From the NCBI GenBank assembly GCA_964620885.1, contig CAZUKR010000002.1, positions 3,621 to 67,620 of the forward strand: a DNA stretch of 64,000 nt. The letters run 5' to 3'. Origin of the DNA: an uncultured Eubacterium sp. (GTDB taxonomy: Bacteria; Bacillota; Clostridia; Lachnospirales; Lachnospiraceae). The stretch's first letter is position 1; the number at the start of each line of letters is the position of its first letter. A model generated the notes under the pieces. The model saw nothing but the letters and a program-made list of their open reading frames with translations. It ran no database searches and was not told where the DNA came from. The translations under genes were made by a program, and so were the position numbers. Shown in pieces: positions 4,199 to 25,968 of this stretch.

Positions 4199-4963
4199 AT
4201 GAAAAAAGGAAAAAAAGATATTAAAAATATTGTGATATTTTTGGCAGCCCTTATGATTTTCGCTTATGCTCTCATACGACTGGGGGCTATTTTTCTGGAA
4301 TATGGAAAGGGTCAGAACAGCTACGAGAAATTGAAGGATCTTACCAGTGAAACAGATGTTGGAAAGGGCAAAGAGAAGCCGGAGAATTTTGCTGTGGACT
4401 TTGCAGAATTAAAAAAAATAAATCCCGATATTACAGGGTGGATTCGTTTTGAACATATGGATATTAGTTACCCCATTGTACAGGGAAGGGATAATGACTA
4501 TTATTTGACCCACTCTTTTTATAAGGAAGAGATAAAATGCGGAAGTATTTTTATAGAAGCAGAAAATGCATCGGACTTTAGTGATGATAACACGTTTATT
4601 TATGGTCATAATATGAAGGACAAGTCTATGTTTGCAAAATTAAATACCTTTCAGGATGAACAGATATATCGGGAAAACCCCGAATTTCTAATTTATACGG
4701 AAGATGAAATTTATCGGTACAGTATTTTTTCCTGTTATCAGGCAGACGTATCATGGGACTCCTTTATTTACCAGTTTGCAGATGAGGAGCAGTACGGGGA
4801 ATGGCTTCAGAAGATGAAGGAACGAAGCAGATATGATACAGGAGTGACACCTCAAAAAGAGCAGAAAACAGTGACCTTAATGACTTGTACAGCAGCAGGA
4901 GATGAATATCGCTTTCTTGTACATGGAGTATTGACGGAAACCATAAAACAGAAGACAAAGTAG
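4199..4963 (+). CDS. srtB: Class B sortase
   Basis: N-terminal TM, IYGHNM motif, catalytic TLMTC and downstream Arg (YRFLVHG). Confidence 0.9.
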   Translation: MKKGKKDIKNIVIFLAALMIFAYALIRLGAIFLEYGKGQNSYEKLKDLTSETDVGKGKEKPENFAVDFAELKKINPDITGWIRFEHMDISYPIVQGRDNDYYLTHSFYKEEIKCGSIFIEAENASDFSDDNTFIYGHNMKDKSMFAKLNTFQDEQIYRENPEFLIYTEDEIYRYSIFSCYQADVSWDSFIYQFADEEQYGEWLQKMKERSRYDTGVTPQKEQKTVTLMTCTAAGDEYRFLVHGVLTETIKQKTK

Positions 4964-7051: not shown

Positions 7052-7060
7052 ATTTGAACA

Positions 7061-7100
7061 AAAGAACTTATTACAATGTACTGTAATAGGTTCTTTTTTT
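7061..7100 (+). terminator. Rho-independent terminator of rpsF-ssb-rpsR
   Basis: AAGAACTTATTACA / TGTAATAGGTTCTT stem plus T-tract. Confidence 0.85.
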
Positions 7101-7170: not shown

Positions 7171-7247
7171 ATTTTGTGACATATCCAATGATTCCATTAT
7201 TGACACTCAAAAGTTTTTATAATAAGCTTTGAATATAGGAGGAAACC

Positions 7248-7712
7248 ATGACAAAATATTATAGTTCTACATATTATATAAATGTATATTTGGATAGAGA
7301 ACAGTCCGGACCTCCGGTCATGGTGCATCTGGTATTATATATTGGAGCCATGGAAGAAGAGAGAATGTTTTATATATTGGAAAAAAAAATTCGAGAATAT
7401 CTGCAAAAAATTCAGAATGCGTGTCTGCCGGAGTACCCTGAATTTCATCAGAGGGAAATCACATTAGAAATTTTAGGAGAGTTTTTCTATAAAAAGCTGA
7501 AAGAGGTATTAGAATCTGGGGGAGTTGAGTTGTACCAGCTGGAAATTTACACCACCCCAACCCGCAGATATAAGGTTTCAGACAGATTACTGCTGCCATT
7601 CCAGTATCCGGGGGATGTGGTGAAGCGTATTGCACATATCCAGGAATGGAGTCAGCGTCTATATTCAGCGGGCAAGGAGGAAGTATATGAAAAACCACAT
7701 GAAATGGATTAA
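7248..7712 (+). CDS. Degenerate QueD/6-pyruvoyl-tetrahydropterin synthase-like (T-fold) protein
   Basis: ITLEILGEFF and LEIYTTPTRRY align with NPTLENCCEHF and IEIKETPTRAY of the paralog at 12384; lacks the His ligands. Confidence 0.6.
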   Translation: MTKYYSSTYYINVYLDREQSGPPVMVHLVLYIGAMEEERMFYILEKKIREYLQKIQNACLPEYPEFHQREITLEILGEFFYKKLKEVLESGGVELYQLEIYTTPTRRYKVSDRLLLPFQYPGDVVKRIAHIQEWSQRLYSAGKEEVYEKPHEMD

Positions 7713-9375
7713 AAAAGTGGGAGTTATTCTTATGGGTATTGTGATGTTTGGCAGCATAATACCGGTTTATGCAGCGCCAGACTGGAATGAGATTACTACT
7801 GTAGAAACAGAATCTGCTTATGCTAATATACAGAGGATGCAGTGTGCTTATGATGAAGAAAATCTATATCTTCATATTGCAGGCGGGGCGTCCGAGGCAG
7901 AGGACTTGCTGCCACAGCTTCAACTGATTATAAATCAAAAGCCACTGGAGGGAGATCTTGGTAATTTGCTCCTTGTCTGCGATAGTATTGAAGACGGAGA
8001 GAACCCCTTGTCTGTGCAGGACAGGCAGTTGAGAGAATTAGGAGCTCAGGGAACCCTGAACAGAAGTGATGGAATAAATGACATAGATATTGCCATTCCC
8101 TTTACAGCACTAGGATACGAATCAAAAGATATTTTGGATGTAACGGTGAATGCTCTTATAGATGGAAATAAAGAAGGGGAATGTGCGGGAGTATCCTTGA
8201 TACAGGAAACAGAACCCATAGAGATTCCGGAAGCAATAAGTGAACCGGAAGTTTCAGGAGAACCGGAGCAGGGGCAAATTGTTATGGATGGTCAGTTTTC
8301 TGACTGGAATGGCTACGATTTGACTTATGGCGGTGAAAGAGGTGTAGACAAGGTTTCTATGGTAAGCGACGGAACCAGCCTTTACATTAGAATCGTGGAA
8401 GATGGTAGTTATGACCAATGTTTTCCAAGAGAATCCACGCCAATGGGAATTACCTCCAATATGGGGAAAGTTTTATGGCTCGATGGCCAGATGCATGGAG
8501 AAGGGGAAGAGATGACATTAACCTTTCAGGGGATTGAAGGGGCCTATGCGGTATGCGGCAAGGTGGATGGCATTTATAACTGGGAAATAGAGGTTCCTTT
8601 ATCAGAGGTTTGGTCTGGAATTACGTATGTATCAGATATAAGCCTCATGTGGAAAAGTGAACATAAAACAATTCTTACCGTTCCCAACCCCTCCTATATT
8701 GACAGAGGAAATCCAGGCGGAGGTTTAGGAGTAGCTGCGGAAATTACCGTTGACGGATATTTTGAGGATTGGGACAGTATACCACACATGGAAATTACTT
8801 ATGACAACGAAAATGGTCCCAACAATCATATTGGTGCTCTTTATATGGGAGAGGACTATATGTATGTACACTATAAGATGAATCGTTTGTATACCTCATA
8901 TATGCGTATTCAGTATATGGAATTTAAAATAAATGGAAACAAATATACACTTGAGGTACTCCCTGTAGATGCCAATGGAAATATTGACTGGTCTGTTAAT
9001 ACGAATCACCTGCAAAATGGAATACACACCAATTTTGGTGTCTTTCTTACAGAGGTTTCCGGTGCAAGCCAGTATCGTAATAATTTAAATGGCCAGACTG
9101 CTCTGGTAATTTATGACAGCAGCCACCAGCGGGACACACTGGGGGATGAAGTGGAATTCTCCATAAGCTATGACAGAATCGAAGAGCTTACCGGAATAAA
9201 ACATTCTGAGATACGGAAAGTGGAGCTTTATAATCCCAATATCGGAGATGAATGGCTGGTGTGCGTGGGAACATCTTCCGGACCATTGCTGGGAGTTGGT
9301 ATTTCTATTACTGCTGCGGCCGGATTGTATTATGTATTAAGCAGAAAGAAAAGAAAGAAAGAGGACAGTATATGA
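7687..9375 (+). CDS. Secreted Firmicu-CTERM sorting-domain protein (predicted XrtG substrate)
   Basis: Signal peptide MKNHMKWIKKVGVILMGIVMFGSIIPVYA; C-terminal VGTSSGPLLGVG + TM + RKKRKK; repeated IxxDGxFxDW segments. Confidence 0.8.
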   Translation: MKNHMKWIKKVGVILMGIVMFGSIIPVYAAPDWNEITTVETESAYANIQRMQCAYDEENLYLHIAGGASEAEDLLPQLQLIINQKPLEGDLGNLLLVCDSIEDGENPLSVQDRQLRELGAQGTLNRSDGINDIDIAIPFTALGYESKDILDVTVNALIDGNKEGECAGVSLIQETEPIEIPEAISEPEVSGEPEQGQIVMDGQFSDWNGYDLTYGGERGVDKVSMVSDGTSLYIRIVEDGSYDQCFPRESTPMGITSNMGKVLWLDGQMHGEGEEMTLTFQGIEGAYAVCGKVDGIYNWEIEVPLSEVWSGITYVSDISLMWKSEHKTILTVPNPSYIDRGNPGGGLGVAAEITVDGYFEDWDSIPHMEITYDNENGPNNHIGALYMGEDYMYVHYKMNRLYTSYMRIQYMEFKINGNKYTLEVLPVDANGNIDWSVNTNHLQNGIHTNFGVFLTEVSGASQYRNNLNGQTALVIYDSSHQRDTLGDEVEFSISYDRIEELTGIKHSEIRKVELYNPNIGDEWLVCVGTSSGPLLGVGISITAAAGLYYVLSRKKRKKEDSI

Positions 9376-9965
9376 GTGTAGTAAAGATACTGGCGGTTCT
9401 GCTTTGGATTTATATTCTTTCCGCATTGAAACGCGGGAAGCTGGGCTTTTGGTATTTTATTACCGGAAGTGTGGGAATGTTTGTATTTTATATGATATTA
9501 CTACAGCCATTGCTGACAATTCCCTTGCAAAAGGCGGTGGCGGCAGTAGCAGGAATCCTGGGAAGTGCATCTGGAATGTTTGAATCTTACTTTCAGCAGG
9601 GAATACTGTTTGTGCCTTATGATACCGGAGCCATTTCATTATATATTGACTATGAGTGTTCGGGAATTATAGAAATAGGGGCCTACCTTTCTCTGCTGGT
9701 ATTTTTTCAGGTATATTCCAAACAGGAAAAATTAGTGCTTTCCATTATTGGAAGTCTTGGGATATTCTGTGCCAACGTTCTGCGGATTTTTATTATTGGA
9801 AGTCTCATTCATATCTGGGGAAGTTCGATTTATTTCGCCGCACATACCATTATTGGAAGAATGGTGTTTTATGGATTTACCATTGTGCTATATTTTTATG
9901 TATTTACCAGAGGGCAGATTAAGCGTCAGCGGATAGGAAAGTTTAATTATGACATTACTGATTGA
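9372..9965 (+). CDS. xrtG: Exosortase family protein XrtG
   Basis: Multi-TM; putative catalytic Cys (YECSG), Arg (NVLR), His (AHTIIGR); start overlaps the stop of the CTERM gene. Confidence 0.85.
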   Translation: MSVVKILAVLLWIYILSALKRGKLGFWYFITGSVGMFVFYMILLQPLLTIPLQKAVAAVAGILGSASGMFESYFQQGILFVPYDTGAISLYIDYECSGIIEIGAYLSLLVFFQVYSKQEKLVLSIIGSLGIFCANVLRIFIIGSLIHIWGSSIYFAAHTIIGRMVFYGFTIVLYFYVFTRGQIKRQRIGKFNYDITD

Positions 9966-11322
9966 TTTTTTCAGTTCATCCATTATATTTTGGATGGCAT
10001 GGGTAATTATACCGGTTGTAATGGAGATTATACCGGCTATAATGGACTTTGTGGTCTTATTGAAGCGTAAAGTCAGAAAAAAAGAATACAAAGAAATCAC
10101 TTATATGCCGGAAATCAGCCTGATTATACCGGTATATAATTCAGCGGAAAGTCTGGAGCGTTGTATAGAATCCGTATACCGTTCGGAATATGATTTGGAA
10201 AAAATCTATGTAATGCTGGTAGATAACGGAAGTAAGGATAACAGTTACGAAATTTTCTGCCGGTGCCGGGAAAAATTTGCGGAGTTATCCATGGTGTGGG
10301 AAACTTCTGCACAGGGTAAGTCCAAGGCATTAAACAAGGCATTATATAACAGCTCAGGAAAGTATATTATACATATTGACAGTGATGGTATGCTGCATCC
10401 ACAGGCATTGAAGAATATGGTGACCTTGTTTGAAAATGAACTGGATATCCATTGTGTGACGGGAACCGTCATCACCAACCCGGAAATGATAGATGATACC
10501 AAAGGGTTTTTTAAGCGCCAGTTTCGGAAGGCAGAGTTTTTTGAATACTGTCAGGCATTTCTGGCAGGACGTAATTTCCAGTCAGAGTTTAACAGCATTT
10601 TCACCTTGTCAGGGGCATTTTCTGCGTTTCGTAAATCTTCTATATTAAAGACACAGTTATATAATACAGAAACAGTGTGCGAAGATACTCATGTTACCTT
10701 TCAGATTCGTGAGAATCTGAAAAACAGGATTGTGATATGCGACAATGCTTTTTTCTTTGTGGATCCCATTGAGAGCCTGGACCAGCTGTACATTCAAAGA
10801 CAACGGTGGCAGCGGGGAGAAATGGAAGTTATTCATATGTTTTACAAAGACATGAAGGCTGTGAAAGGATTTATATCTAATTTTGTCATACGTATTATCA
10901 TATTTGACCATACCTTTGCATTTCCAAGAATGATTTGGTACTTTGCCTTGATTTGTCTTACCATGTTTAATTATCCCGTAAGACTGGTGGTAATGTCTCT
11001 TGGAATTATATATGCCTTGTATATGGTAAGTTCCTTTTTATTTTATATTAGTATTTCTATGTTTTTATCTAAATATAAGGACCTAAAAAAGTACTATATG
11101 CGGAAATGGTACCATATCCTGTTTCACCCGCTGTTTAATTTCATGACATTCTGGTTTCGCTTTGCGGGAATTATCAATTCAATCAGGGGGGACCAGAGCT
11201 GGAAGACAAGAACATTCAAGGAAGAATATCAAGTATTTCGTAAAATTGTAAAAAAAGATTTTGGCTGGTTTTTTAGGGGACTGGAAAGATTACGGAAAGC
11301 AGTAAATGTTTCCGAGGAATAA
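9949..11322 (+). CDS. Processive GT2 glycosyltransferase, exosortase G-associated type
   Basis: VDNGS, HIDSD (DxD), CEDT, QRQRW (QxxRW) motifs; N- and C-terminal TMs. Confidence 0.85.
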   Translation: MTLLIDFFSSSIIFWMAWVIIPVVMEIIPAIMDFVVLLKRKVRKKEYKEITYMPEISLIIPVYNSAESLERCIESVYRSEYDLEKIYVMLVDNGSKDNSYEIFCRCREKFAELSMVWETSAQGKSKALNKALYNSSGKYIIHIDSDGMLHPQALKNMVTLFENELDIHCVTGTVITNPEMIDDTKGFFKRQFRKAEFFEYCQAFLAGRNFQSEFNSIFTLSGAFSAFRKSSILKTQLYNTETVCEDTHVTFQIRENLKNRIVICDNAFFFVDPIESLDQLYIQRQRWQRGEMEVIHMFYKDMKAVKGFISNFVIRIIIFDHTFAFPRMIWYFALICLTMFNYPVRLVVMSLGIIYALYMVSSFLFYISISMFLSKYKDLKKYYMRKWYHILFHPLFNFMTFWFRFAGIINSIRGDQSWKTRTFKEEYQVFRKIVKKDFGWFFRGLERLRKAVNVSEE

Positions 11323-11334
11323 TTGGAGTAAAAG

Positions 11335-12378
11335 ATGAAGAGAACAAGACATATTGTTGTAGTAATATCCATGGCGCTATTGCTGATATTAGAAGCTGTA
11401 TTTATGGTCTATGGTTTTAAAAAGATAGAGGATGACTATGTGAATATATATCTGGAGCAGAAGGAGGAATATCTGGCACAGATAAATCTGCATCTGGAAT
11501 ATATGTTGGAGCAGGGAGGGCAGCAGCAGGAACTGGTGCGTTATATATCAGAGTATGTACCAGTGTCCGGCAGCTACTATGCGTGGCTTATCAGAGATGA
11601 ATCTGTAATTTTTGCTAAAAATGAAACGGTAACGGCATCTTTGGGAGAAACTCAGGCCTGGCCGGTATTTCAGGAGGCAATTGACGCCCGGGAAACCTGC
11701 AGTGTTTCAGCAGAATTTTCATATGAAGAAGAAAACTATATTACCGGAATTGTTATCGACCGGAATTATATTTTAAAGGATAAAAATCTACAGAAATTTA
11801 AGATGTATAACAGTGTGAGTCTGTCTGTTCTGGGATTGCTGATGTTTTCTGCAATGGCGTTGTATATACAGAGATTCTGGAAGGAAAAGAAAAGAAATAT
11901 TCTTATAGAGGGAGAGCTTCAGAATAAGAATAGTACGCTGAATGAAATGCATGAGGACGTGGTAAGGCTGAACCAGAAAATACGAAAACAGAAACGAAAT
12001 CCAGAGGGAAGGAAAAGCTATGATTTGCAGATGGCGAAAAAGCTTCTGGAGAAGTCTGAAAGGGCGGGAATCTGGCCGATGTATTACGCTGTGTTTCAAT
12101 TGCGGATGTATGAAGGGCAGTATTATGGAAAGCAGCAGATTATGGACGTTATAGAGCAGATATCTCTGGATGAACGCCATATTCTCATGGAAATTCAAAA
12201 GGGATGCTTTCTGGTATTTTTCTACCGGACAAAAGAGGAGGAGATGGAAGAGATTTTAGAAGATGTGAGAGAAAAATGGAAATCTACAAAAATAAAAATA
12301 AAAATTTATTCCGGATCGGTCCATCCCAATCAGCCGGAACGTGAATGGCTGGATGAATTTTTAGAAAGAAAGGAGTGA
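11335..12378 (+). CDS. Membrane protein: TM, extracellular domain, TM, coiled coil, small cytoplasmic alpha/beta domain (possibly degenerate GGDEF)
   Basis: Hydropathy pattern and operon position; no intact GG(D/E)EF motif. Confidence 0.55.
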   Translation: MKRTRHIVVVISMALLLILEAVFMVYGFKKIEDDYVNIYLEQKEEYLAQINLHLEYMLEQGGQQQELVRYISEYVPVSGSYYAWLIRDESVIFAKNETVTASLGETQAWPVFQEAIDARETCSVSAEFSYEEENYITGIVIDRNYILKDKNLQKFKMYNSVSLSVLGLLMFSAMALYIQRFWKEKKRNILIEGELQNKNSTLNEMHEDVVRLNQKIRKQKRNPEGRKSYDLQMAKKLLEKSERAGIWPMYYAVFQLRMYEGQYYGKQQIMDVIEQISLDERHILMEIQKGCFLVFFYRTKEEEMEEILEDVREKWKSTKIKIKIYSGSVHPNQPEREWLDEFLERKE

Positions 12379-12383
12379 AATGC

Positions 12384-12836
12384 ATGAAGTACAGACAGTA
12401 TACCTTTACGTTCTACTTAAATACCAGTCATGCAATTTATATTAATGGAAAACGAGGGCAGATACATCCTCATACCTGGGAAATCACCCTTCATTTACTG
12501 TATATGCAGGAGAATTTCATTGCCTTTCATAAGCTGGAAGAACGGATTGAGGAATATATGGCCAAATATCAGGATATATGTCTCAATGATATGGAGCCTT
12601 TTAATCGGATAAATCCTACCTTGGAAAACTGTTGTGAACATTTTAAAAATGAATTGAAAGATATTCTGAATGAGGAAGGATGGCTTTTGCTAATGATAGA
12701 GATTAAGGAGACACCAACCCGGGCATATGTGATAAACCTTTTAGACGAAGATGGGACAGAAGATGAGCAGTTTCTGGAGGCCTTTTCTAATGAATTATTG
12801 ACTCGCATTGCTCAGGGGAAGAGCATAGATGAATAA
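12384..12836 (+). CDS. QueD/6-pyruvoyl-tetrahydropterin synthase-related protein
   Basis: SHAI...IHPHTW (three His), NPTLEN, IEIKETPT. Confidence 0.8.
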   Translation: MKYRQYTFTFYLNTSHAIYINGKRGQIHPHTWEITLHLLYMQENFIAFHKLEERIEEYMAKYQDICLNDMEPFNRINPTLENCCEHFKNELKDILNEEGWLLLMIEIKETPTRAYVINLLDEDGTEDEQFLEAFSNELLTRIAQGKSIDE

Positions 12837-13881
12837 TTTACAAGATGTGAAAATTATTATTCCGGTGCTGAACCCGAATGAAAATTTTTTAAAATTATTA
12901 GATGAATTAAAAAACCAGGGGTTTGAGCCGCCCATAGTGGTAAACGATGGAAGCAGCTCTGAAAGCTGCGGCTATTTTCAAACGGCACAGGAAGAGTATG
13001 GATGTATTGTTTTGGAACACGAGGAAAATAAGGGAAAAGGCTGTGCATTGAAAACAGCTTTTTCCTATATTTTAAGCGAAAACAAATACAAATATGTGGT
13101 GACCATTGATGCGGATGGGCAGCATGAGCCAGAGGATGTGTTGGCATGTGTTATTGCGGCACGGGAAGCTGAAAACAGTAGAAAAGTGATGTTTGGATGT
13201 CGGAATTTTAATGAACCACAGGTACCTGCAAAGAGCAGAATAGGAAATAAAAGCATGTGTATATTAATGCGTTTCGCCTGTGGAATGAACTTGTCTGATA
13301 CCCAGACCGGACTGCGGGTATTTCCGGTAGAATATTTACCGTGGTTGGTAGAAGTTGAAGGAGAACGGTTTGAGTACGAGACCAATGTGCTTATTTTTAT
13401 GCAGGGAAAAGAAATTCCCTATGGAGAAGTCAGTGTGAGAACGGTATATATGGAAGAGAACAAGTCTTCCCATTTCCGTCCCATAACGGATTCTCTTATT
13501 ATTATCCGCCCATTTTTAAAGTTTCTTGTATCATCATTTAGTTCTTCTCTGGTAGATTTAGCTGTTTTTACACTTTTGTTTTATCTGCTGCGGGGATTCC
13601 CGGAACGTGAGGTTATCTGGGGAGCCACCATAGCGGCAAGAGCTTTATCGGCATGCTTCAATTACCTGCTAAACCGTCACAAAGTGTTTGAACAGGGAAG
13701 CGGAAAGTCACCGATGAAATATATTGCGCTGTGTATTTTACAGATGTGTATGTCGGCAGCACTGGTAAGTGCCGTATTTAGAATTGTGGGAGTGGGAGCA
13801 GTTGGAATTAAGATTGTAGTAGATATAAGTTTATTTTTTGTTAGTTATCAGATACAGCGGGAATGGGTATTTTCAAAATAA
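12829..13881 (+). CDS. GT2 polyprenyl-phosphate glycosyltransferase fused to a GtrA-like flippase domain
   Basis: VVNDGSS, NKGKG, TIDADGQH, DTQTGLR; C-terminal 4-TM GtrA pattern (FNYLLNRHKVF, YQIQREWVF). Confidence 0.85.
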   Translation: MNNLQDVKIIIPVLNPNENFLKLLDELKNQGFEPPIVVNDGSSSESCGYFQTAQEEYGCIVLEHEENKGKGCALKTAFSYILSENKYKYVVTIDADGQHEPEDVLACVIAAREAENSRKVMFGCRNFNEPQVPAKSRIGNKSMCILMRFACGMNLSDTQTGLRVFPVEYLPWLVEVEGERFEYETNVLIFMQGKEIPYGEVSVRTVYMEENKSSHFRPITDSLIIIRPFLKFLVSSFSSSLVDLAVFTLLFYLLRGFPEREVIWGATIAARALSACFNYLLNRHKVFEQGSGKSPMKYIALCILQMCMSAALVSAVFRIVGVGAVGIKIVVDISLFFVSYQIQREWVFSK

Positions 13882-16421
13882 TGGAGGCGAGAAGAGTGTC
13901 GGAAAAGGGGATTAAAAGGAACAGTATTCGGATATATGGCATAATAGCAGGACTATTGCTCAGCGTATTGCTGGCAGTAGTGACGATTCTGGTGATTAAG
14001 AAGACAGGATTGTATCCCAAAGGATATGATACCATGTATCATATTTATAGAGGCGAATCTCTATTTCAGGCATGGAAGAATCAGGAATGGTACCCTCTGT
14101 ATGACCGGTATCTTTATAATGGAGTACAGCCATTGCGTTACTGGGCGCCGGTAACGGTATATATTTTGGCAGGCCTTCGGTTTTTAAGTGCTTCTATTTT
14201 GAATGCATATCTGCTGTTTATAGGTGTTTTGATTATATTATCAATGGCAGGATGGCTTCGGTTTGGATGGCATTATAAGCGTATTCCGCTGGCTATTTTT
14301 ACAGGTGTAATCTGGTTTTTTATGCCGGAGAATTTGAGGGTGTTTTTTGCCAGCGGCAACCTGCCCAGAGGACTTGTGGCGGCATTATTGCCCTGGTTCA
14401 TGTTTGCTGTAATGCGTTTTCTGGAGTATGGGAAAAGGCAAAAAGAAGAGCCGGAAAACCATAAATTGCGGAAAAAGCAGGCATGGGCATTTGGAGAAAT
14501 CGGGATTCAGACGGCACTTCTGGTACTGGCCCATTCCGGTCAGGGAAGTATTGTACTCCTGTGTACGCTGATATTTCTATTGATATATGGCATATCCCAG
14601 AAACAGGGCAAATCGGCCGGTCAGGTAGTGCTTGCGGTTCTTGGGGGATACGGACTTACTGGTTTATGGCTGTATCCATCCTTAAAGGGTGGCCTGGTCT
14701 CCATGGGTAATGACAGTGCTCAGGTAATGGAGGCAAGCTTTCAAAATATATGGGTTTCCATACAACCCTTTTTACGGTTAGAAAACCAGGATGTTATGTA
14801 TTTCGGACTGTCTGTACTGGTGTTGGCGGTGATGGGAATGTTTCTTGCATTCCGGGAGCAGAAGGCGGGTTTTCTGACGGGAATTCTGATTTTTTTAGGA
14901 ACCAGTCTTTCTGCCTACAAGATATTAATGAAGCTGCCATTTAGCGGAATTTTGTGGATGGAACGTTTTGTATCGGTAGCACTGATATTTGTGCTGATCT
15001 CCTTTATCCAATGGAAACGCCTGAAACCCTGGCTGACTGCTGTGGTATGTATATTGCTGGCAGCGGATACCATACCGTCCCTGCAGTTTATCTGGGCACA
15101 AAAGGAAGAATGGGTGGAGGATGCCCATGAGGAAATTGAAAATGATGCCAAGAGACTCCTGCTGGATGAAGCGAAAGCTGTTACGAATCAAAGAATAGCA
15201 GTTATGGATTTGAGTGCTTATACAGCATTTGCGCCTTATTATTTGTCGGGAGAAGAACCACAGGTATTGTGTACCTTTGGTGCCGCATGGCAGAGTGCCC
15301 ATACAGCATCCAATGTAGTAATGCTCAATACTGCCATATCAGAGGGGTATTATGATTATTTATTTGACCGGTGCCTGGAAATGGGAAATGATACGGTATA
15401 TGTGCTGGAGTCAGCCATGAAAAATGGACGGCAGGATATAGAACAGCTTACAGCGGCGGCAGAGCGTATGGGGTATCAGTGCGTTGCAGATAATGGGATA
15501 AATGTAATTTTTCACAGGGAAATAAAAGAAGGTTTTGGTACGGTTACAGACTATGAGGGAATTGCAATTGGGACATCGGCTCAATCCATAGCCTTACGTT
15601 ATCCTGTATTTCAGGAAACCACAGAATCCAATTTAAATCACTATACATTTGAAGATCTGGTCTCTTATCAGAAGATATATTTATCTGGTTTTTCTTATGA
15701 TGATAAGGAAGAAGCAGAGAGACTGGTGGAAAAACTTGCAGAAGCAGGATGTGAAATATATGTTGATATGGGAAACATTTCAGCGGAAAAATCTGGACTG
15801 TCCAGTTTTCTTGGATGCGAAACAGCATCTGTTATGCTGAAAGATTACTATCCGGAACTTACTTTTGAAGGAAGGATATATCAGACTGGAAAATTTACAG
15901 AAGAGAATAGTCAGTGGAATACCGTATATCTGGTAAATCCAGAGAAGCCAGATGGGACAGCGGTTTATAATAATCAGGAGCTTTGCTTTAGCAGTACCGC
16001 AGAAAATGAAAGAATACATATGCTGGCCTTTAATCTGGTTTATTATGGAATAAGTACCGGAGATGAGGAGGCTGGAATATTCCTGAATCAATACTTTGAG
16101 GCAGAACCGGGGATAACACCAACGCGGAGCGTAGTACCTGTGGATATTTCCTATTCTCCGGAGGGGATCGCAATAGAGACAGGGCAGGATAATGTAAACA
16201 CGGCATTGGCGTATCTGGACTCCTTTTCTATTGATAAGGAGGTAAGAGAAGAAAACCATCTTCTTGTGGTAGACAAAGGGGTAACCAAAATTCACTTTAC
16301 CTATCCCTACTTTATCCAGGGATTGCTTCTTACCGCAGGCGGAGGAGCATTTCTGCTGGCATATGGAATGTGGCTGTGCCGGAGAATGGACGGAAAAAAG
16401 AACTTTAACTTGCCGGACTAA
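13881..16421 (+). CDS. Large polytopic membrane protein of the PTPS-related/YfhO (GT-C-like) type
   Basis: First-loop GYDTMYH...WYPLYD...YNG motif, about 12 TMs, large soluble C-terminal domain, terminal TM; start could be the GTG at 13896. Confidence 0.7.
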   Translation: MEARRVSEKGIKRNSIRIYGIIAGLLLSVLLAVVTILVIKKTGLYPKGYDTMYHIYRGESLFQAWKNQEWYPLYDRYLYNGVQPLRYWAPVTVYILAGLRFLSASILNAYLLFIGVLIILSMAGWLRFGWHYKRIPLAIFTGVIWFFMPENLRVFFASGNLPRGLVAALLPWFMFAVMRFLEYGKRQKEEPENHKLRKKQAWAFGEIGIQTALLVLAHSGQGSIVLLCTLIFLLIYGISQKQGKSAGQVVLAVLGGYGLTGLWLYPSLKGGLVSMGNDSAQVMEASFQNIWVSIQPFLRLENQDVMYFGLSVLVLAVMGMFLAFREQKAGFLTGILIFLGTSLSAYKILMKLPFSGILWMERFVSVALIFVLISFIQWKRLKPWLTAVVCILLAADTIPSLQFIWAQKEEWVEDAHEEIENDAKRLLLDEAKAVTNQRIAVMDLSAYTAFAPYYLSGEEPQVLCTFGAAWQSAHTASNVVMLNTAISEGYYDYLFDRCLEMGNDTVYVLESAMKNGRQDIEQLTAAAERMGYQCVADNGINVIFHREIKEGFGTVTDYEGIAIGTSAQSIALRYPVFQETTESNLNHYTFEDLVSYQKIYLSGFSYDDKEEAERLVEKLAEAGCEIYVDMGNISAEKSGLSSFLGCETASVMLKDYYPELTFEGRIYQTGKFTEENSQWNTVYLVNPEKPDGTAVYNNQELCFSSTAENERIHMLAFNLVYYGISTGDEEAGIFLNQYFEAEPGITPTRSVVPVDISYSPEGIAIETGQDNVNTALAYLDSFSIDKEVREENHLLVVDKGVTKIHFTYPYFIQGLLLTAGGGAFLLAYGMWLCRRMDGKKNFNLPD

Positions 16422-16473
16422 AATGGTATAATGAGAGATAACTATTTTTCCAACCAGTTAGAGGAGAGTGTGA

Positions 16474-18525
16474 ATGAAGAGAAAAATACGTCTGAAAGGG
16501 CAGTTGAGAAAATATATGTACTGGCCCCTTATGCTTACAGCGCTGGTAGTGTTGATGAATATACCTGTATATTATATGGACAAAAAGGCAGGAATTTGTG
16601 TTTCTATTTTTACCGTGATATACTTTTTAGTAATGCTGGGTGCTCATGTTGCTAATAAGTCGGCAATGTTGAATGAAATTATTAATTTTGCCACCCAATA
16701 TGGAACCATACAGAAGAATCTGTTGAATGAATTTGAGATACCTTATGCTTTGCTGGATTATAACAGCAGAATTCTGTGGATGAATGAAGCGTTTGTAGAT
16801 ATTACCGGCAGAGAGAAGAAATATCATAAATCTATCAACACCATTTTTCCCGCGATTACAAGAGAGTTGCTGGAAAAAGAAGGTGAGACCAATGAGGTAG
16901 AGGTAAAGTTTGAAGATAAGATTTACCGTGCCAGCATGAGTAAGATATATTTTGACGAGGTCACGGAAGACAGTGGAGTAATTGAGCTGGAAAATAACCA
17001 TCAGTTTCTGACAGCACTGTATCTGTTTGATGAGACAGAGTTACATCATTATATTCAGGAAAATCAAGACCAGCAGTTAGTATCAGCATTGATATATATT
17101 GACAATTACGAAGAAGCACTGGAGAGTATTGAAGAGGTTAAGCGCTCCCTTCTGGTGGCTCTGGTAGATCGTAAGGTAAGCAAGTATTTTTCCGAGCGGG
17201 ATAGTATTGTAAAAAAAATAGAAAAAGACAAATACTTTCTGGTGTTTAAGAACAAATATCTGAAAGAGCTGATAGAGGATAAGTTCAGTATTCTGGAAGA
17301 AGTAAAAACCATTAAAGTTGGAAATGAAATGGCAGTTACGCTGAGTATTGGTGTTGGAGTCAATGGCGCCAATTATAATCAGAAATATGAGTATTCACGG
17401 GTAGCAATCGACCTTGCTCTGGGCCGTGGCGGTGATCAGGTAGTGGTAAAAGACAAGGAAAAAATCTCCTATTTTGGTGGAAAATCCAGACAGGTAGAAA
17501 AAATGACTCGTGTAAAGGCCCGTGTAAAAGCCCATGCACTTCGTGAAATTATGGAGAGCAAAGAACAGGTTATTATTATGGGACACAGTATCAGTGATAT
17601 AGATGCATTTGGTGCAGCCATAGGTATTTATTGTGCAGCCCAGGTTCTTGGGAAAAAGACCTATATCGTGATAAACCAGGTAACATCATCCCTGCGCCCT
17701 ATAAAAGAATGCTTTTCTGAAGAAAAGGGATATCCGGCGGATATGTTTATTAATAGTGACAGAGCAATGGAACTTGTAGATTACAATACCGTTGTTATGG
17801 TTGTGGATACCAATCGTCCCAACTATACCGAGTGTCCCGAACTGTTAAACCGGACAAAAACCATTGTGGTATTTGACCACCATCGTCAGAGCAGTGAAGT
17901 AATTGACAATGCAGTACTTTCTTATATTGAGACATATGCATCCTCCACCTGCGAAATGGTAGCGGAGGTATTACAGTATTTTAATGAAAATATTCATTTG
18001 AAGCCTGCGGAAGCAGACTGTATTTATGCAGGTATTTTAATTGATACCAACAACTTTATGACCAAGACAGGAGTACGTACCTTTGAAGCAGCTGCTTATC
18101 TGCGCCGCTGCGGAGCAGAAGTGACCAGAGTGCGTAAACTCCTTAGAGATGATATGGATTCCTATAAGGCAAGAGCAGAGGCAGTGCGACATGCAAGGGC
18201 TTACCGGGAAGTATTTGCTATTTCCATCTGCCCGGGAGATAATATTGAAAGTCCTACAATCGTAGGTGCCCAGGTAGCAAATGAACTTTTAAATATAGTG
18301 GGTATCAAGGCATCCTTTGTACTTACAGAATTTAATGAAAAAATATATATCAGTTCCCGTTCTATTGATGAAATTAACGTACAGCTTATTATGGAACGGT
18401 TAGGCGGCGGAGGTCATCTGAATGTGGCAGGAGCCCAGTTAGAAGACTATACTATAGAAGAGGCAGAAGAAAAGATACAGGAAACCCTGGATCAAATGAT
18501 AGAAGAAGGAGATATAGAACTATGA
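16474..18525 (+). CDS. gdpP: Cyclic di-AMP phosphodiesterase GdpP/YybT
   Basis: 2 TMs, PAS-like region, degenerate GGDEF (ALGRGGDQ), DHH (FDHHR), DHHA1 (GGGGH); upstream of rplI. Confidence 0.92.
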
Positions 18526-18971
18526 AAATAATATTATTGGAAGATGTAAAATCTCTGGGAAAAAAAGGTGAAGTGGTAAACGTTAATGACGGTTACGCAA
18601 GAAATATGATTTTACCTAAAAAGCTGGGTATAGAAGCAACCGGTAAAAATATGAACGATTTAAAACTTCAAAAAGAATATGCAGATAAAGTGGCAAAAGA
18701 GAATTTGGAAGCAGCCAAAGCCCTTGCAGAGGAAATCGGTACAAAAGAAGTAACGGTAAAAATTAAAACAGGAGAGGGTGGAAAGACCTTTGGTTCTGTT
18801 TCTTCCAAAGAGATTGCAACAATGGCAAAACAACAGTTGAATCTGGAGCTGGATAAGAAAAAGATGCAGGTAGAAGACGGAAGCCTCAAGACACTTGGTG
18901 TACATGAAGTAGCTATTAAGCTTCATCCAAAAGTAACGGCGTCCTTAAAGGTAAAAGTAATAGAAGAATAG
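18522..18971 (+). CDS. rplI: 50S ribosomal protein L9
   Basis: [28 protein letters not shown]; FGSVSSKEI. Confidence 0.97.
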
Positions 18972-18983
18972 GAGGACCCGGTT

Positions 18984-20315
18984 ATGGAGGAAGCTCTTAT
19001 CAAACGGATTATGCCAAATAGTCTGGAAGCAGAGCAGTCGGTTATCGGTTCTATGATTATGGATAAGGAGGCAATTGTTATTGCCTCTGAAACTTTAATA
19101 AGAGAAGATTTTTATCATCAGCAGTACGGAATACTATTTGAATGTATGATAGAGTTGTACAACGAAGAAAAGCCGGTAGATGTGGTAACCCTGCAGAATC
19201 GTCTGCGGGAAAAAGATGTTCCAGCGGAATTAAGCAGTATGGAATTTGTGGGAGAGCTGGTAACAGCCGTTCCGACTTCTGCAAATATAAAATATTATGC
19301 GAATATTGTAAAAGAAAAAGCTACCTTACGGAAGCTTATAAAGGTAAACGAAGAGATTGCCAATGAATGTTATCTTCAGAAGGAAAGTGTAGATGACATT
19401 ATGGCAGATACAGAAAAGAAAATTTTTAATCTGCTCCAGAATAAAAGCGGGGGAGATTATGTACCCATTAAAAATGTTGTTATCAATGCTCTGGAAAAGA
19501 TTGAACAGGCATCCAGAACAAAGGGAAATGTAACTGGAATTGCAACGGGGTTTGTGGACTTAGATTATCGTATGTCCGGTCTTCAACCCTCAGACCTGAT
19601 TCTGATTGCAGCCCGGCCTTCTATGGGAAAAACAGCATTTGTATTGAATATTGCCCAACATGTGGCTTTTCACAGTGATATGTGTACCGCCATATTCAGT
19701 CTGGAAATGTCAAAAGAACAGTTGGTAAATCGATTGTTCTCCTTGGAATCCAGAGTAGACGCCCAACTGCTTCGTTCCGGTAATCTTGCAGATTCCGATT
19801 GGGAAAAGCTGATAGAGGGAGCAGGAACCATTGGACGCTCTAATCTTATCATTGATGATACACCAGGTATTTCTATTTCCGAGTTACGATCCAAGTGTCG
19901 TAAGTATAAACTGGAGCATGATTTAAAAGTGATTATCATTGACTACCTTCAGTTGATGTCAGGAAGCGGTAAGTCAGATTCCAGACAGCAGGAAATTTCT
20001 GATATTTCCCGTTCTTTAAAGAGTCTTGCCAGAGAGCTTAGTGTACCGGTTATTGCATTATCCCAGCTGAGCCGTCAGGTGGAGCAGAGACCGGATCATC
20101 GCCCAATGCTTTCTGACCTTCGAGAGTCAGGAGCAATTGAGCAGGATGCCGACGTTGTAATGTTTATCTATCGTGATGATTATTACAACAAAGATACACC
20201 GGATAAGAACATTGCTGAAATCATTATTGCAAAGCAAAGAAATGGTCCTATTGGTACAATAAATTTGGTTTGGCTGCCTCAGTATACCAAATTTGCCAAT
20301 ATGGAGAAAAATTAA
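18984..20315 (+). CDS. dnaB: Replicative DNA helicase
   Basis: EAEQSVIG, AARPSMGKT, IIDYLQLM, LSDLRESGAIEQDAD, IIAKQRNGP. Confidence 0.97.
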   Translation: MEEALIKRIMPNSLEAEQSVIGSMIMDKEAIVIASETLIREDFYHQQYGILFECMIELYNEEKPVDVVTLQNRLREKDVPAELSSMEFVGELVTAVPTSANIKYYANIVKEKATLRKLIKVNEEIANECYLQKESVDDIMADTEKKIFNLLQNKSGGDYVPIKNVVINALEKIEQASRTKGNVTGIATGFVDLDYRMSGLQPSDLILIAARPSMGKTAFVLNIAQHVAFHSDMCTAIFSLEMSKEQLVNRLFSLESRVDAQLLRSGNLADSDWEKLIEGAGTIGRSNLIIDDTPGISISELRSKCRKYKLEHDLKVIIIDYLQLMSGSGKSDSRQQEISDISRSLKSLARELSVPVIALSQLSRQVEQRPDHRPMLSDLRESGAIEQDADVVMFIYRDDYYNKDTPDKNIAEIIIAKQRNGPIGTINLVWLPQYTKFANMEKN

Positions 20316-24138: not shown

Positions 24139-25968
24139 ATGCCAGATATCGACAGACAAAAACCTGGGCAGAACTTGGGAAGAGACAGAAGAGAAGATAT
24201 TTCCAGCAGAAGACCTGTCAGACGCAGAAAGCCCAAAAAGAGTAATACATCCATATTTGTAGCAGCAATTTTTATTACAATTGTAATATTGATTGCGGTC
24301 ATCAGTATGCTGATAAAGAAGTACAGCCCAAATAAAGAGCGGGTAGATGTGAACAGCTATTATAATGTCCAGAAGGAAGAGGACATGGCGCTTATTTTGG
24401 ATAATAAGCGGATGGAAGATATAGCAAAATACTGGGACGGGCATGTGTATGTAGAATATCAGGGAGTACGTAATAATCTGAACCAGCGCTTTTACTGGGA
24501 TGCCAATGAAAATATACTTCGTTATGTAACACCCTCGGATGTCATTACAGTAAATGCAGGCGAGCAGAGTTACATGGTTACGAAAACCAGTGAAAATGTT
24601 GACTATGTCATTGTCAGGGTAGATGGTGATAAGATGTATCTGGCACTGGACTTTATCCAAAAATATACCAATCTTGACTTTGAAATAAATAAGAAACCCA
24701 ATCGGGTAATGGTTACCAGCCAGTGGGGAAAGATAAAGAAAGCTCAAATCAAAAGGAATACGGAAATCCGTCAGAAAGGCGGTATTAAGAGCCCTATTGT
24801 GGCAGATATAGAAAAAGACACTAAAGTGACCGTTCTGGAGAGCGGAGACAACTGGAGTAAAGTCTGTACCCAGGATGGTATGATCGGGTATCTTAAAAAT
24901 AATAAACTAGGTGAGATAAAGGCAGAGACTATTTCCAGAGATTTTGAAGAGCCTGTGTTCAATCATCAGTTAAAGGATAAGACCATTAGTTTGGGCTGGC
25001 ATCAAGTAACCAATCAGGCAGGCAATGACCGTGTAGCAAAGGTATTGGAGTCTACCAAAGGAATCAATGTATTGTCACCCACCTGGTTTTATCTGAACGA
25101 TAATAACGGAAATATTTATTCCCTGGCAAACCGCAGTTATGTGGATTATTGTCATCAGAATGGTGTAGAGGTGTGGGCACTGATCAGTAATTTGGAAAAC
25201 CCTGATGTGGATACTACCCATGTATTGACCCATACATCTACTAGAGATTATCTGGTAAACCAGATTATTGCAGCCGCCATTGAATATGATTTGGATGGAA
25301 TAAATCTGGATTTTGAAGCATTAGATGGACAGGTAGGAGATGCTTATATCCAATTTATACGAGAATTATCAATTAAGTGTGAAAATAACAATATTGTATT
25401 GTCTGTAGATAATTATGTACCGTCTTCCTATACGGCTTTTTATAACCGCAGTGAGCAGGCTGTATTTGCAGACTACGTCATTGTTATGGCATATGACGAA
25501 CATACCAAAGTATCGGAAGATATAGGTCCGGTGGCTTCCATTGGATTTGTAAAAGAAGGAGTAAAAAACACATTGAAGGAAGTTCCGGCGGAACAGATAA
25601 TTATGGGAATTCCTTTTTATACCAGAGTATGGGAGTTGACACCAAAAGAAGATGCCGGAGAAGATGTAGAATCTGCGGCGGAAGATTATCTGCCATACAC
25701 CTTTACCTGTGTGGAAGAGGGGATGCAGACGGTAGAAAACCGCTATACTGTTAACGGCGCACAGGCAGCGTGGGATGAAGAAAGCGGCCAAAATTATGTA
25801 GAATATGAAAATGGCGGAAAAACCTACAAAATCTGGATTGAAAATGAAGCGTCCTTAGAAGTGAAGCTGAAAGTCATGAAAGAAAATTCCCTGGCAGGAG
25901 CAGCTTATTGGAAATTAGGAATTGAGCGGCAATCTGCATGGGACACCATAATAAAATATGTAAACTGA
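24139..25968 (+). CDS. Glycoside hydrolase family 18 with SH3-like domain (spore cortex YaaH/YdhD-like)
   Basis: DGINLDFE catalytic motif, VIVMAYDEH, MGIPFYTR, AAYW; N-terminal TM. Confidence 0.85.
   Translation: MPDIDRQKPGQNLGRDRREDISSRRPVRRRKPKKSNTSIFVAAIFITIVILIAVISMLIKKYSPNKERVDVNSYYNVQKEEDMALILDNKRMEDIAKYWDGHVYVEYQGVRNNLNQRFYWDANENILRYVTPSDVITVNAGEQSYMVTKTSENVDYVIVRVDGDKMYLALDFIQKYTNLDFEINKKPNRVMVTSQWGKIKKAQIKRNTEIRQKGGIKSPIVADIEKDTKVTVLESGDNWSKVCTQDGMIGYLKNNKLGEIKAETISRDFEEPVFNHQLKDKTISLGWHQVTNQAGNDRVAKVLESTKGINVLSPTWFYLNDNNGNIYSLANRSYVDYCHQNGVEVWALISNLENPDVDTTHVLTHTSTRDYLVNQIIAAAIEYDLDGINLDFEALDGQVGDAYIQFIRELSIKCENNNIVLSVDNYVPSSYTAFYNRSEQAVFADYVIVMAYDEHTKVSEDIGPVASIGFVKEGVKNTLKEVPAEQIIMGIPFYTRVWELTPKEDAGEDVESAAEDYLPYTFTCVEEGMQTVENRYTVNGAQAAWDEESGQNYVEYENGGKTYKIWIENEASLEVKLKVMKENSLAGAAYWKLGIERQSAWDTIIKYVN

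Follow-up and report, generated by a model that had tools for sequence, protein, structure and literature searches.

An XrtG/Firmicu-CTERM exosortase operon with linked glycan-biosynthesis genes in an uncultured Eubacterium sp.

Among the widespread surface-protein pathways of prokaryotes, exosortase-type sorting belongs to the few with almost no biochemistry to support them. XrtG is its Gram-positive form, with one enzyme for one substrate, and occurs in abundant gut metagenome-assembled genomes (MAGs) of Lachnospiraceae, Coprococcus and Oscillospiraceae. The XrtG/Firmicu-CTERM system was reportedly defined by Haft, Payne and Selengut in 2012 (J Bacteriol 194:36), with the models TIGR03110, TIGR04145, TIGR03111 and TIGR03112. 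Here, an operon of this type is described in a stretch of 64,000 nucleotides (hereinafter referred to as the window) from an uncultured Eubacterium sp. of the Lachnospiraceae (contig CAZUKR010000002.1, positions 3,621 to 67,620 of the forward strand). Other described systems that resemble parts of it are three-component extracytoplasmic glycosylation (GtrA/GtrB/GtrC, CsbB/YfhO and ArnC/ArnT) and the degenerate GGDEF membrane partners of exopolysaccharide synthases, YdaK in Bacillus subtilis and PssE in Listeria. For the XrtG homologue ArtA, an active-site cysteine, a proposed thioester and an amine-bearing lipid as its resolver have been reported (PMC7157517). An earlier reading of the window from the sequence alone (the original prediction) had stated that the XrtG system was defined bioinformatically and that, as far as was known, its anchor, its polymer and the role of the QueD-like proteins were experimentally uncharacterised. 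The literature agrees: our search found no functional work on XrtG, Firmicu-CTERM, TIGR03111/TIGR03112 or PF10131, only annotation-level mentions in transcriptomes and genome lists and one transcriptomic association. Transcripts of the XrtG system were raised in self-aggregating strains of L. plantarum (PMC12854382).

Eight plus-strand open reading frames (ORFs), P1 to P8, overlap or nearly abut one another and fill positions 7248-16421 of the window, as had been predicted for eight tightly coupled genes:

7248-7712, plus strand: P1, T-fold protein 1, 154 amino acids, without transmembrane (TM) segment; PF01242 30.7 bits, above threshold; Shine-Dalgarno (SD) sequence AGGAGG at 7237-7242
7687-9375, plus strand: P2, Firmicu-CTERM substrate, 562 amino acids; TIGR04145 148.4 bits against a cut-off of 50, E 2e-43, over amino acids 353-557
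9265-9372, plus strand: C-terminal sorting signal of P2; VGTSSGP, a 19-residue hydrophobic helix (amino acids 534-552) and an RKKRKK tail
9372-9965, plus strand: P3, XrtG, 197 amino acids, polytopic; TIGR03110 196.1 bits against a cut-off of 102.75, E 5e-58
9949-11322, plus strand: P4, XrtG-associated processive-type synthase of glycosyltransferase family 2 (GT2), 457 amino acids; TIGR03111 641 bits against a cut-off of 364, E 7e-193
11335-12378, plus strand: P5, bitopic membrane protein, 347 amino acids; no family in any hidden Markov model (HMM) library
12384-12836 (alternative start GTG 12375), plus strand: P6, T-fold protein 2, 150 amino acids, cytoplasmic; TIGR03112 140.3 bits against a cut-off of 69.35, E 3e-41
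12829-13881, plus strand: P7, GT2 domain resembling polyprenyl-phosphate sugar synthases, fused to a GtrA-type TM domain (amino acids 231-348); PF00535 and PF04138
13863-16421 (start possibly GTG 13896), plus strand: P8, polytopic PF10131 protein (PTPS_related, glycosyltransferase C (GT-C) clan); PF10131 435 bits, E 6e-130

Gene families were called with curated HMMs (NCBIfam/TIGRFAM and Pfam) against curated cut-offs. This was the check named in the original prediction, and the exosortase and CTERM models matched well above cut-off; curated HMMs likewise matched the proteins called as processive GT2, GT2-GtrA fusion, GT-C-like protein and second T-fold protein. Such matches lie far outside what chance would give, and the identity of the operon as an XrtG/Firmicu-CTERM system is close to certain. 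Curated models already name it automatically; the operon is another member of an already defined, auto-annotated system type and not a new kind of system. From gene identities, motifs, synteny and fusions, we infer the chemical steps, polymer, acceptor and ligand of a four-step model, in which the operon would build a cell-associated protein-glycan surface structure. We give this model an even chance.

The sorting enzyme P3 also matched the exosortase/archaeosortase signature TIGR04178 (exo_archaeo) with 48.4 bits against a cut-off of 23, and its candidate catalytic residues are Cys96 (9657-9659), Arg138 (9783-9785) and His158 (9843-9845). Among 24 XrtG homologues with 49-79% identity to the window protein, C96 (in DYECSG), N135 and R138 (in ANVLRI), H158 (in AHT) and R163 were invariant. 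Sequence and profile searches of the PDB retrieved no solved structure related to XrtG. The gene is flanked by its Firmicu-CTERM target immediately upstream (ATGA overlap) and by the TIGR03111 GT2 gene immediately downstream (17-nucleotide overlap). Moreover, three independent database representatives (P0158, P0159 and P0160) are in-frame CTERM::XrtG fusions, in which the G-S-S-x-G-P motif abuts the first TM segment (TM1) of XrtG and the substrate has lost its helix and basic tail. These fusions are not read-through artefacts; the enzyme carries its substrate in cis and is thus tied to it, which supports XrtG and P2 as a probable enzyme-substrate pair. Since the motif stands directly before TM1 in the fusions, TM1 would be oriented N-out, with the loop that ends at Cys96 on the outer face beside the motif.

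Five further proteins (P0260, P0267, P0268, P0278 and P0299) are XrtG-like exosortases at or just below the TIGR03110 cut-off, with C-terminal extensions of 200-550 amino acids that lack an NCBIfam match. They may represent an undescribed fused exosortase subfamily.

P2 carries a Sec-type signal peptide (amino acids 1-29, ending in VYA and followed by AP) and TM segments at amino acids 11-29 and 534-552. Its mature part contains 84 D+E against 27 K+R. Over 80 loci, the tail follows the consensus NPN[IL]G...G[TS][SP][TS][GA]P, then a hydrophobic TM helix and a K/R cluster. An AlphaFold 2 (AF2) model with a mean predicted local distance difference test score (pLDDT) of 71 showed three beta-sandwich domains, and a Foldseek search with this model in full gave nothing beyond generic tandem Ig-like folds, for example Fabs. 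Repeated DGxFxDW starts had suggested carbohydrate-binding modules, an idea that was dropped as none of the three domains had a Pfam match. No second Firmicu-CTERM substrate was found in the window by tblastn. In the third step of the proposed model, the Sec pathway would export P2, whose C-terminal helix would keep it in the membrane. Cys96 of XrtG, at the outer membrane face, would then attack the GTSSGP motif, releasing the helix and basic tail and forming a thioester. An operon-made acceptor, glycan or glycolipid, would most likely resolve this thioester and so tie protein and polymer to the cell; a covalent link of P2 to a lipid or glycan, as in the original prediction, is what we infer.

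The same features could also be read as a release pathway, in which XrtG would be a dedicated protease. By hydrolysing the tail, it would set P2 free into the exopolysaccharide matrix, as a soluble protein with a structural or glycan-binding role. The high acidity and tandem beta-sandwich modules of P2 are shared with many matrix and adhesin proteins, no transfer step is demanded by the sequence, and simple release still fits the natural cis fusions. However, the conserved Cys/Arg/His active site is transpeptidase-like and lies at the membrane interface, and the characterised analogues or homologues, sortase A, ArtA and rhombosortase, all transfer their substrate to an acceptor. Release is decidedly unlikely in our view. 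Attachment to the cell wall, with XrtG acting as a functional sortase substitute that links P2 to peptidoglycan or to a teichoic-acid amine, appears highly improbable. The host envelope is of the Gram-positive type and the tail architecture mimics LPXTG signals, but exosortases are unrelated to sortases, the specific tie to glycan genes would be left unexplained, and the canonical sortase gene 2.3 kb upstream of the operon (4199-4963) leaves no obvious need for a substitute.

Comparison of loci placed XrtG in a conserved gene set. The operon was found with identical protein sequence on 6 gut-metagenome contigs. XrtG homologues formed 277 clusters (90% identity) at E <= 0.001, and among 1.84 billion proteins 345 representatives (50% identity) matched XrtG, 71 of them at E <= 1e-30. 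A scan of species-representative genomes yielded 80 loci with the same gene order, nearly all in Clostridia (Lachnospiraceae, Coprococcus, Oscillospiraceae, Ruminiclostridium, Desulfosporosinus and Epulonipiscium). The ORFs of these loci were searched with the eight window proteins, and counts were taken from the 57 loci with enough flanking sequence. The CTERM protein and T-fold 2 were present in 57/57 loci each, the GT2 synthase in 56/57 and PF10131 in 52/57. T-fold 1 was likewise present in 57/57, as a free protein in 41 and fused to PF10131 in 16. P5 was detected in 43/57 loci (34 free, 9 with its N-module fused to T-fold 2), and a second GT2 of the P7 type in 23/57. Loci without a phmmer match to P5 hold in the same slot a gene of equal size with a two-TM layout. 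The slot is thus filled even where P5 was missed, and the window contains the full consensus gene set, so that the operon merits the description "complete" given to it in the original prediction.

Location between rpsR and gdpP was confined to the window's own clade (L007 to L009). At this site, the locus of a Clostridiales MAG (L009, JAAYPT010000032) keeps T-fold 1, the CTERM protein and XrtG, followed at 10578-11224 by a 177-amino-acid chimeric remnant of P4 and P6 (a deletion from P4 into P6); P5, P7 and P8 are missing. The glycan half seems to have been deleted naturally here. That P1, P2 and XrtG are kept without most glycan genes argues that sorting and glycan genes may be separable, unless the locus is in decay. 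In a same-species contig (L006, Logan SRR8925818, 1634-4273), P5 ends early at 324 amino acids and is followed by an opposite-strand DDE transposase (DUF772/DDE_Tnp_1); the operon there was interrupted by an insertion sequence.

P4 contains the D, DxD, D, QxxRW motifs of processive synthases (D92, D144xD146, D246 and Q283RQRW287), with one N-terminal and at least three C-terminal TM segments. The nearest characterised model was PgaC/IcaA (TIGR03937), which aligned over the full length with 132.9 bits, below its equivalog cut-off of 422.3. As the first step of the model, P4 would polymerise and export a beta-linked polysaccharide, with an N-acetylglucosamine (GlcNAc) type as the best guess; a poly-N-acetylglucosamine- or chitin-like polymer is a lead suggested by the sequence, not a finding. 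P5, always the next gene, would serve as a co-factor or regulator of the synthase.

The original prediction had called P5 a membrane sensor-like protein. A membrane protein with a PAS/Cache-like outside domain was indeed found, and it could be assigned more specifically to the GGDEF family in degenerate form. Its layout comprises TM1 (amino acids 7-25), the extracytoplasmic PAS/Cache-like domain, TM2 (160-178), a coiled coil and a GGDEF-like domain (approximately 229-345). The AF2 model (pLDDT 71.5) showed TM1, an outside alpha/beta domain, TM2, a long helix and a beta-alpha-beta-beta-alpha-beta domain. Foldseek matched P5 to the coiled-coil and GGDEF proteins SiaD, DosC, WspR, PelD and LapD (probability ~1.0, domain TM-score ~0.45) and its outside domain to the sensor domain of WalK. 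The window P5 had no match at the Pfam GGDEF gathering score. In four loci, positional equivalents of P5 passed the Pfam GGDEF threshold (32-46 bits) with the dead motifs GNSEF, GRNEF and GKAEF, and hhalign joined the P5 family to these four (probability 97%, E 4e-11, 292 columns). P5 has QKGCF at the GGDEF position, where KGxF occurs across the P5 family and GNSEF, GRNEF or GKAEF in its distant members. On account of the fold matches, the GGDEF-passing equivalents and the hhalign link, we conclude that P5 is a GGDEF membrane protein in strongly degenerate form, with its gene beside that of a GT2 synthase. The idea of P5 as a receptor for cyclic di-GMP (c-di-GMP) through an RxxD I-site was rejected, as RxxD is not conserved in the family.

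The second step of the model would fall to P7 and P8. The GtrA domain of P7 (GtrA_DPMS_TM) matched PF04138 with 41.7 bits, and its GT2 domain most resembled AglJ, PpgS and ArnC among NCBIfam models, all below cut-off. The second GT2s of other loci, about 260 amino acids long, are likewise similar to polyprenyl-phosphate sugar synthases. In two loci (L041 and L044), a standalone GT2 precedes a fusion of the GtrA domain to PF10131, whereas the window has GtrA joined to the GT2. This shuffling of GT2, GtrA and PF10131 domains between genes argues that they form a single Gtr-like pathway of synthesis, flipping and outside transfer, as far as domain architecture can suggest it. P7 would make a polyprenyl-phosphate sugar, its GtrA domain would flip the lipid-linked sugar across the membrane, and P8 would move the sugar onto an extracytoplasmic acceptor, either the polymer or P2.

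P8 has approximately eight TM segments (TM1 at amino acids 27-45), an extracytoplasmic C-terminal domain of ~410 amino acids and a terminal TM segment. The first outside loop after TM1 contains G54, D56 and H60, all three invariant in 65 homologues, with D56 as the conserved acidic residue. R92, N166, H224, R368, D402 and many residues of the C-terminal domain were also invariant (sets of 65 and 21 homologues). PF10131 has been placed by HHpred with the GT-C/PMT families STT3, PMT and Glyco_transf_22 (PMC7801869). A match between the C-terminal domain and a glucosaminidase middle domain (E = 1.4) was not significant. Six loci (L035 at 17330-19996, L059 at 12720-15341, L057, L072, L077 and L082) contain a second large membrane protein of ~870-890 amino acids with weak likeness to PF10131 (28-49 bits) and no NCBIfam match, which may be a paralogous GT-C-like partner.

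The two T-fold proteins differed in conservation. P6 also passed the PF01242 threshold. Over 74 T-fold 2 orthologues, H19, H31, H33, E55, N71, N80 and E84 were 100% conserved and E112 98%, and the His triad was kept in 73/73 locus orthologues. H31 and H33 of P6 align with the HGH zinc ligands of QueD (2OBA); the equivalence of H19 is positional only. P6 thus likely has a zinc site and a glutamate that would anchor a purine or pterin. The catalytic cysteine of QueD is missing from P6 (none four residues before HxH), the DH segment of the Asp-His dyad is deleted relative to 2OBA, and scores were below the QueD and 6-pyruvoyl-tetrahydropterin synthase (PTPS) cut-offs (TIGR03367, 29.9 against 89.25; TIGR00039, 17.1 against 125.5). 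Lacking these catalytic residues, P6 would be a ligand-binding or new-chemistry subunit and not a pterin synthase. A 363-amino-acid protein in another locus (L059, 17629-18720) has two TIGR03112 stretches (219 bits) and is a tandem T-fold 2.

The designation of P1 as a first T-fold protein was sustained by the PTPS Pfam match; the protein is degenerate, fell below the TIGR03112 cut-off (55.4 bits against 69.35) and has lost three histidines and Glu112. At these positions it has L15, P22, V24 and T102, against H, H, H and E or D in 84-89% of orthologues. The His triad was kept in 49/57 free and 12/18 fused copies of T-fold 1, while in the window and L007, L008 and L009 the conserved His and Glu112 positions hold L, P, V or S, and T or S. 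P1 shares 71% identity with its L007 orthologue, with a nonsynonymous divergence (dN) of 0.18 and saturated synonymous divergence (dS), and dN was far below dS for all eight operon genes against both L007 and L008. A decaying pseudogene was therefore rejected. With the His triad lost yet dN far below dS, P1 is best read as a conserved pseudo-enzyme in the window clade, and likely a partner of PF10131. P1 contains an A9 homopolymer at 7381-7389, where an otherwise identical contig (L002, ENA ERZ12298803) has A8, which splits P1 into ORFs of 72 and 60 amino acids. The difference could be an assembly error or slipped-strand variation.

T-fold 1 orthologues are N-terminally fused to PF10131 in 18 loci. 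In some 9-10 loci, T-fold 2 takes the place of the GGDEF-like domain and is C-terminally fused to the N-module of P5. Both fusions suggest that the T-folds are cytoplasmic modules docked on membrane components, and as the fourth step of the model P1 would dock on P8 and P6 on P5. That a T-fold can stand in for a GGDEF-like domain is striking, given that guanine-type ligands are bound by both folds; a shared ligand-sensing role is speculation.

The junctions were tight throughout. P1 and P2 overlap by 26 nucleotides, with an SD sequence (AAGGAGG) ahead of ATG 7687, P2 and P3 share an ATGA, and P3 and P4 overlap by 17 nucleotides. A gap of 12 nucleotides separates P4 from P5. P5 and P6 either overlap by 4 nucleotides or are separated by 5, with P6 starting at ATG 12384 behind an SD sequence (AAAGGAG); the latter start was the gene caller's choice on an identical public contig. 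P6 and P7 overlap by 8 nucleotides, and P7 and P8 overlap or abut, depending on the start of P8 (ATG 13863, ATG 13881 or GTG 13896). The upstream boundary of the XrtG operon is marked by one feature:

7060-7097, plus strand: intrinsic terminator with a 16-bp stem and a T-run, which ends the upstream rpsF-ssb-rpsR unit

The 196-nucleotide leader between this terminator and P1 had no Rfam match at gathering level and no unusual fold. A riboswitch or structured leader was rejected, with only chance-level Rfam matches at E <= 1 and a fold z-score of -0.8. No terminator was found 3' of 16421, and a promoter-like site with an extended -10 lies at 16405-16432, ahead of the next gene (GdpP-type DHH protein).

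Recent horizontal acquisition of the operon was also rejected, as its GC content (0.38-0.43) is the same as that of its flanks. Outside the operon, the window consists of housekeeping chromosome with, among others, the genes for DnaB and ATP synthase. GC skew was positive in all 2-kb bins of the window (1-64000) and nearly all long ORFs lie on the plus strand, which fits a leading-strand chromosomal segment near dnaB. The sortase gene at 4199-4963 (PF04203) is followed by a SIR2 deacetylase gene; together with XrtG, it indicates that the organism has both sortase and exosortase pathways. Located 7.7 kb downstream of the operon, an ORF at 24139-25968 encodes a 609-amino-acid protein with bacterial SH3 and glycoside hydrolase family 18 (GH18, chitinase-type) domains, which may be of interest should the P4 polymer prove GlcNAc-based.

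Several observations weigh against the protein-glycan model. The score of P4 far below the PgaC equivalog cut-off makes its polymer a guess. P5 lacks both the GGDEF catalytic motif and the RxxD I-site, and nucleotide binding is therefore unsupported. P7-type genes in only 23/57 loci mean that the decoration module is not universal or that the donor is made elsewhere. PDB sequence and profile searches gave no relative of P8 or PF10131. The reduced L009 locus indicates that sorting may survive without the glycan genes, or that this locus is decaying. Finally, by analogy, the homologue ArtA points to a membrane-lipid amine and not a glycan as the acceptor.

This last point leads to an ArtA-like lipid anchoring, in which XrtG would place P2 on an amine-bearing membrane lipid that is not operon-made (for example of phosphatidylethanolamine (PE) type, or lysyl), and the glycan genes would only build a matrix bound or organised by the anchored P2. 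Within the exosortase/archaeosortase superfamily, experimental data exist for ArtA alone; they indicate lipid anchoring at the C-terminus, and an ethanolamine lipid has been proposed as the nucleophile (PMC7157517). XrtG has the signature domain in common with ArtA, as well as the invariant Cys and Arg. On the other hand, lipid anchoring leaves unexplained the near-obligate co-occurrence with GT2 synthase, PF10131 and T-fold genes. In addition, papers report XrtG systems in Lactiplantibacillus, Levilactobacillus and Leuconostoc, and PE is generally missing from lactobacilli, which counts against this reading. In archaea, the synteny artA-pssA-pssD pointed to the genes that make the acceptor (PMC7157517); applied here, this reasoning would predict a glycan-related acceptor. 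We regard lipid anchoring as unlikely.

The protein-glycan model can be carried further, to a bacterial "proteoglycan" of protein and polysaccharide or glycolipid. The Cys96 thioester would be resolved by a sugar-borne nucleophile from the synthase/GtrA/PF10131 machinery, gated by the T-folds and the GGDEF domain. This extension is unlikely. The accompanying idea, that the membrane-docked zinc T-folds and the degenerate GGDEF domain are interchangeable sensors of guanine- or pterin-type ligands for cytoplasmic gating, is put forward just as tentatively. If true, these ideas would mean that the chemistry of anchoring is new and that the PTPS/QueD fold has a further role, either non-enzymatic or with novel chemistry.

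The identity of the anchor and polymer would show how commensals build a surface layer for aggregation or biofilm formation, and the same work would reveal the roles of the PF10131 GT-C enzyme and of the PTPS-like T-fold outside pterin metabolism. The fusions, the degenerate T-fold and the GGDEF-derived partner sharpen testable hypotheses; the window is no more tractable for this question than known loci in culturable hosts, among them the L. plantarum locus LP_RS09075-09090 (PMC12854382) and those of a cultured Coprococcus or Ruminiclostridium sufflavum (L024, L027, L035).

Compared with archaeosortase A/PGF-CTERM of Haloferax volcanii, the window system has a homologous polytopic Cys enzyme, the signature domain, a tripartite signal and a proposed thioester followed by transfer. 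It differs in GTSSGP instead of PGF, one dedicated substrate instead of many, a bacterial host, and linked genes for glycan and not ethanolamine-lipid synthesis. XrtA (EpsH)/PEP-CTERM resembles it as an exosortase genetically tied to exopolysaccharide loci (PMC1569441). In contrast, XrtA systems occur in outer-membrane hosts, have many substrates per genome, a PEP motif and a longer enzyme, and the window XrtG matches only the C-terminal part of EpsH models, weakly (24 bits).

P4 shares with PgaCD/IcaAD (also NodC and BcsA) the full-length alignment to the PgaC/IcaA model, the D/DxD/D/QxxRW motifs, flanking TM segments and a small membrane partner encoded next to it. The operon differs in that it encodes neither a deacetylase of the PgaB/IcaB type nor a PilZ domain, the partner of P4 is GGDEF-derived, and the score is far under the equivalog cut-off. 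PelD (PDB 4etz) resembles P5 in that a GGDEF-type domain, anchored in the membrane and catalytically dead, is encoded beside a GT2 synthase. P5 differs from the degenerate GGDEF partners in lacking a conserved RxxD I-site, and in approximately nine loci T-fold 2 replaces the domain. The P4-P5 arrangement was also compared with the c-di-GMP-controlled gts operon of L. acidophilus (PMC6123363).

P7 and P8 recall three-component glycosylation through a GT2 that resembles polyprenyl-phosphate sugar synthases, a TM domain of the GtrA family and a putative transferase of the GT-C clan, with the domains shuffled. The differences are the large conserved outside C-terminal domain of PF10131, its cytoplasmic T-fold partner and the lack of a characterised PF10131 member. 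P6 resembles QueD/PTPS (T-fold, COG0720) in the PF01242 match, three histidines at putative zinc-ligand positions and a C-terminal glutamate in a 'KET'-like motif, but it scores below the equivalog cut-offs, lacks the catalytic Cys and Asp-His dyad and, in some species, is tethered to the membrane as part of a fusion protein. In P1, the His triad is missing as well.

The closest likeness is to the catalogued XrtG/Firmicu-CTERM system, all four models of which match: three above cut-off, and the fourth (TIGR03112) above it for P6. Both have one enzyme with one adjacent substrate, an adjacent GT2, T-folds and a PF10131 partner. No essential difference separates them; T-fold 1 of the window clade is without the His triad, and the window operon adds the optional GT2::GtrA gene and the rpsR-gdpP site.

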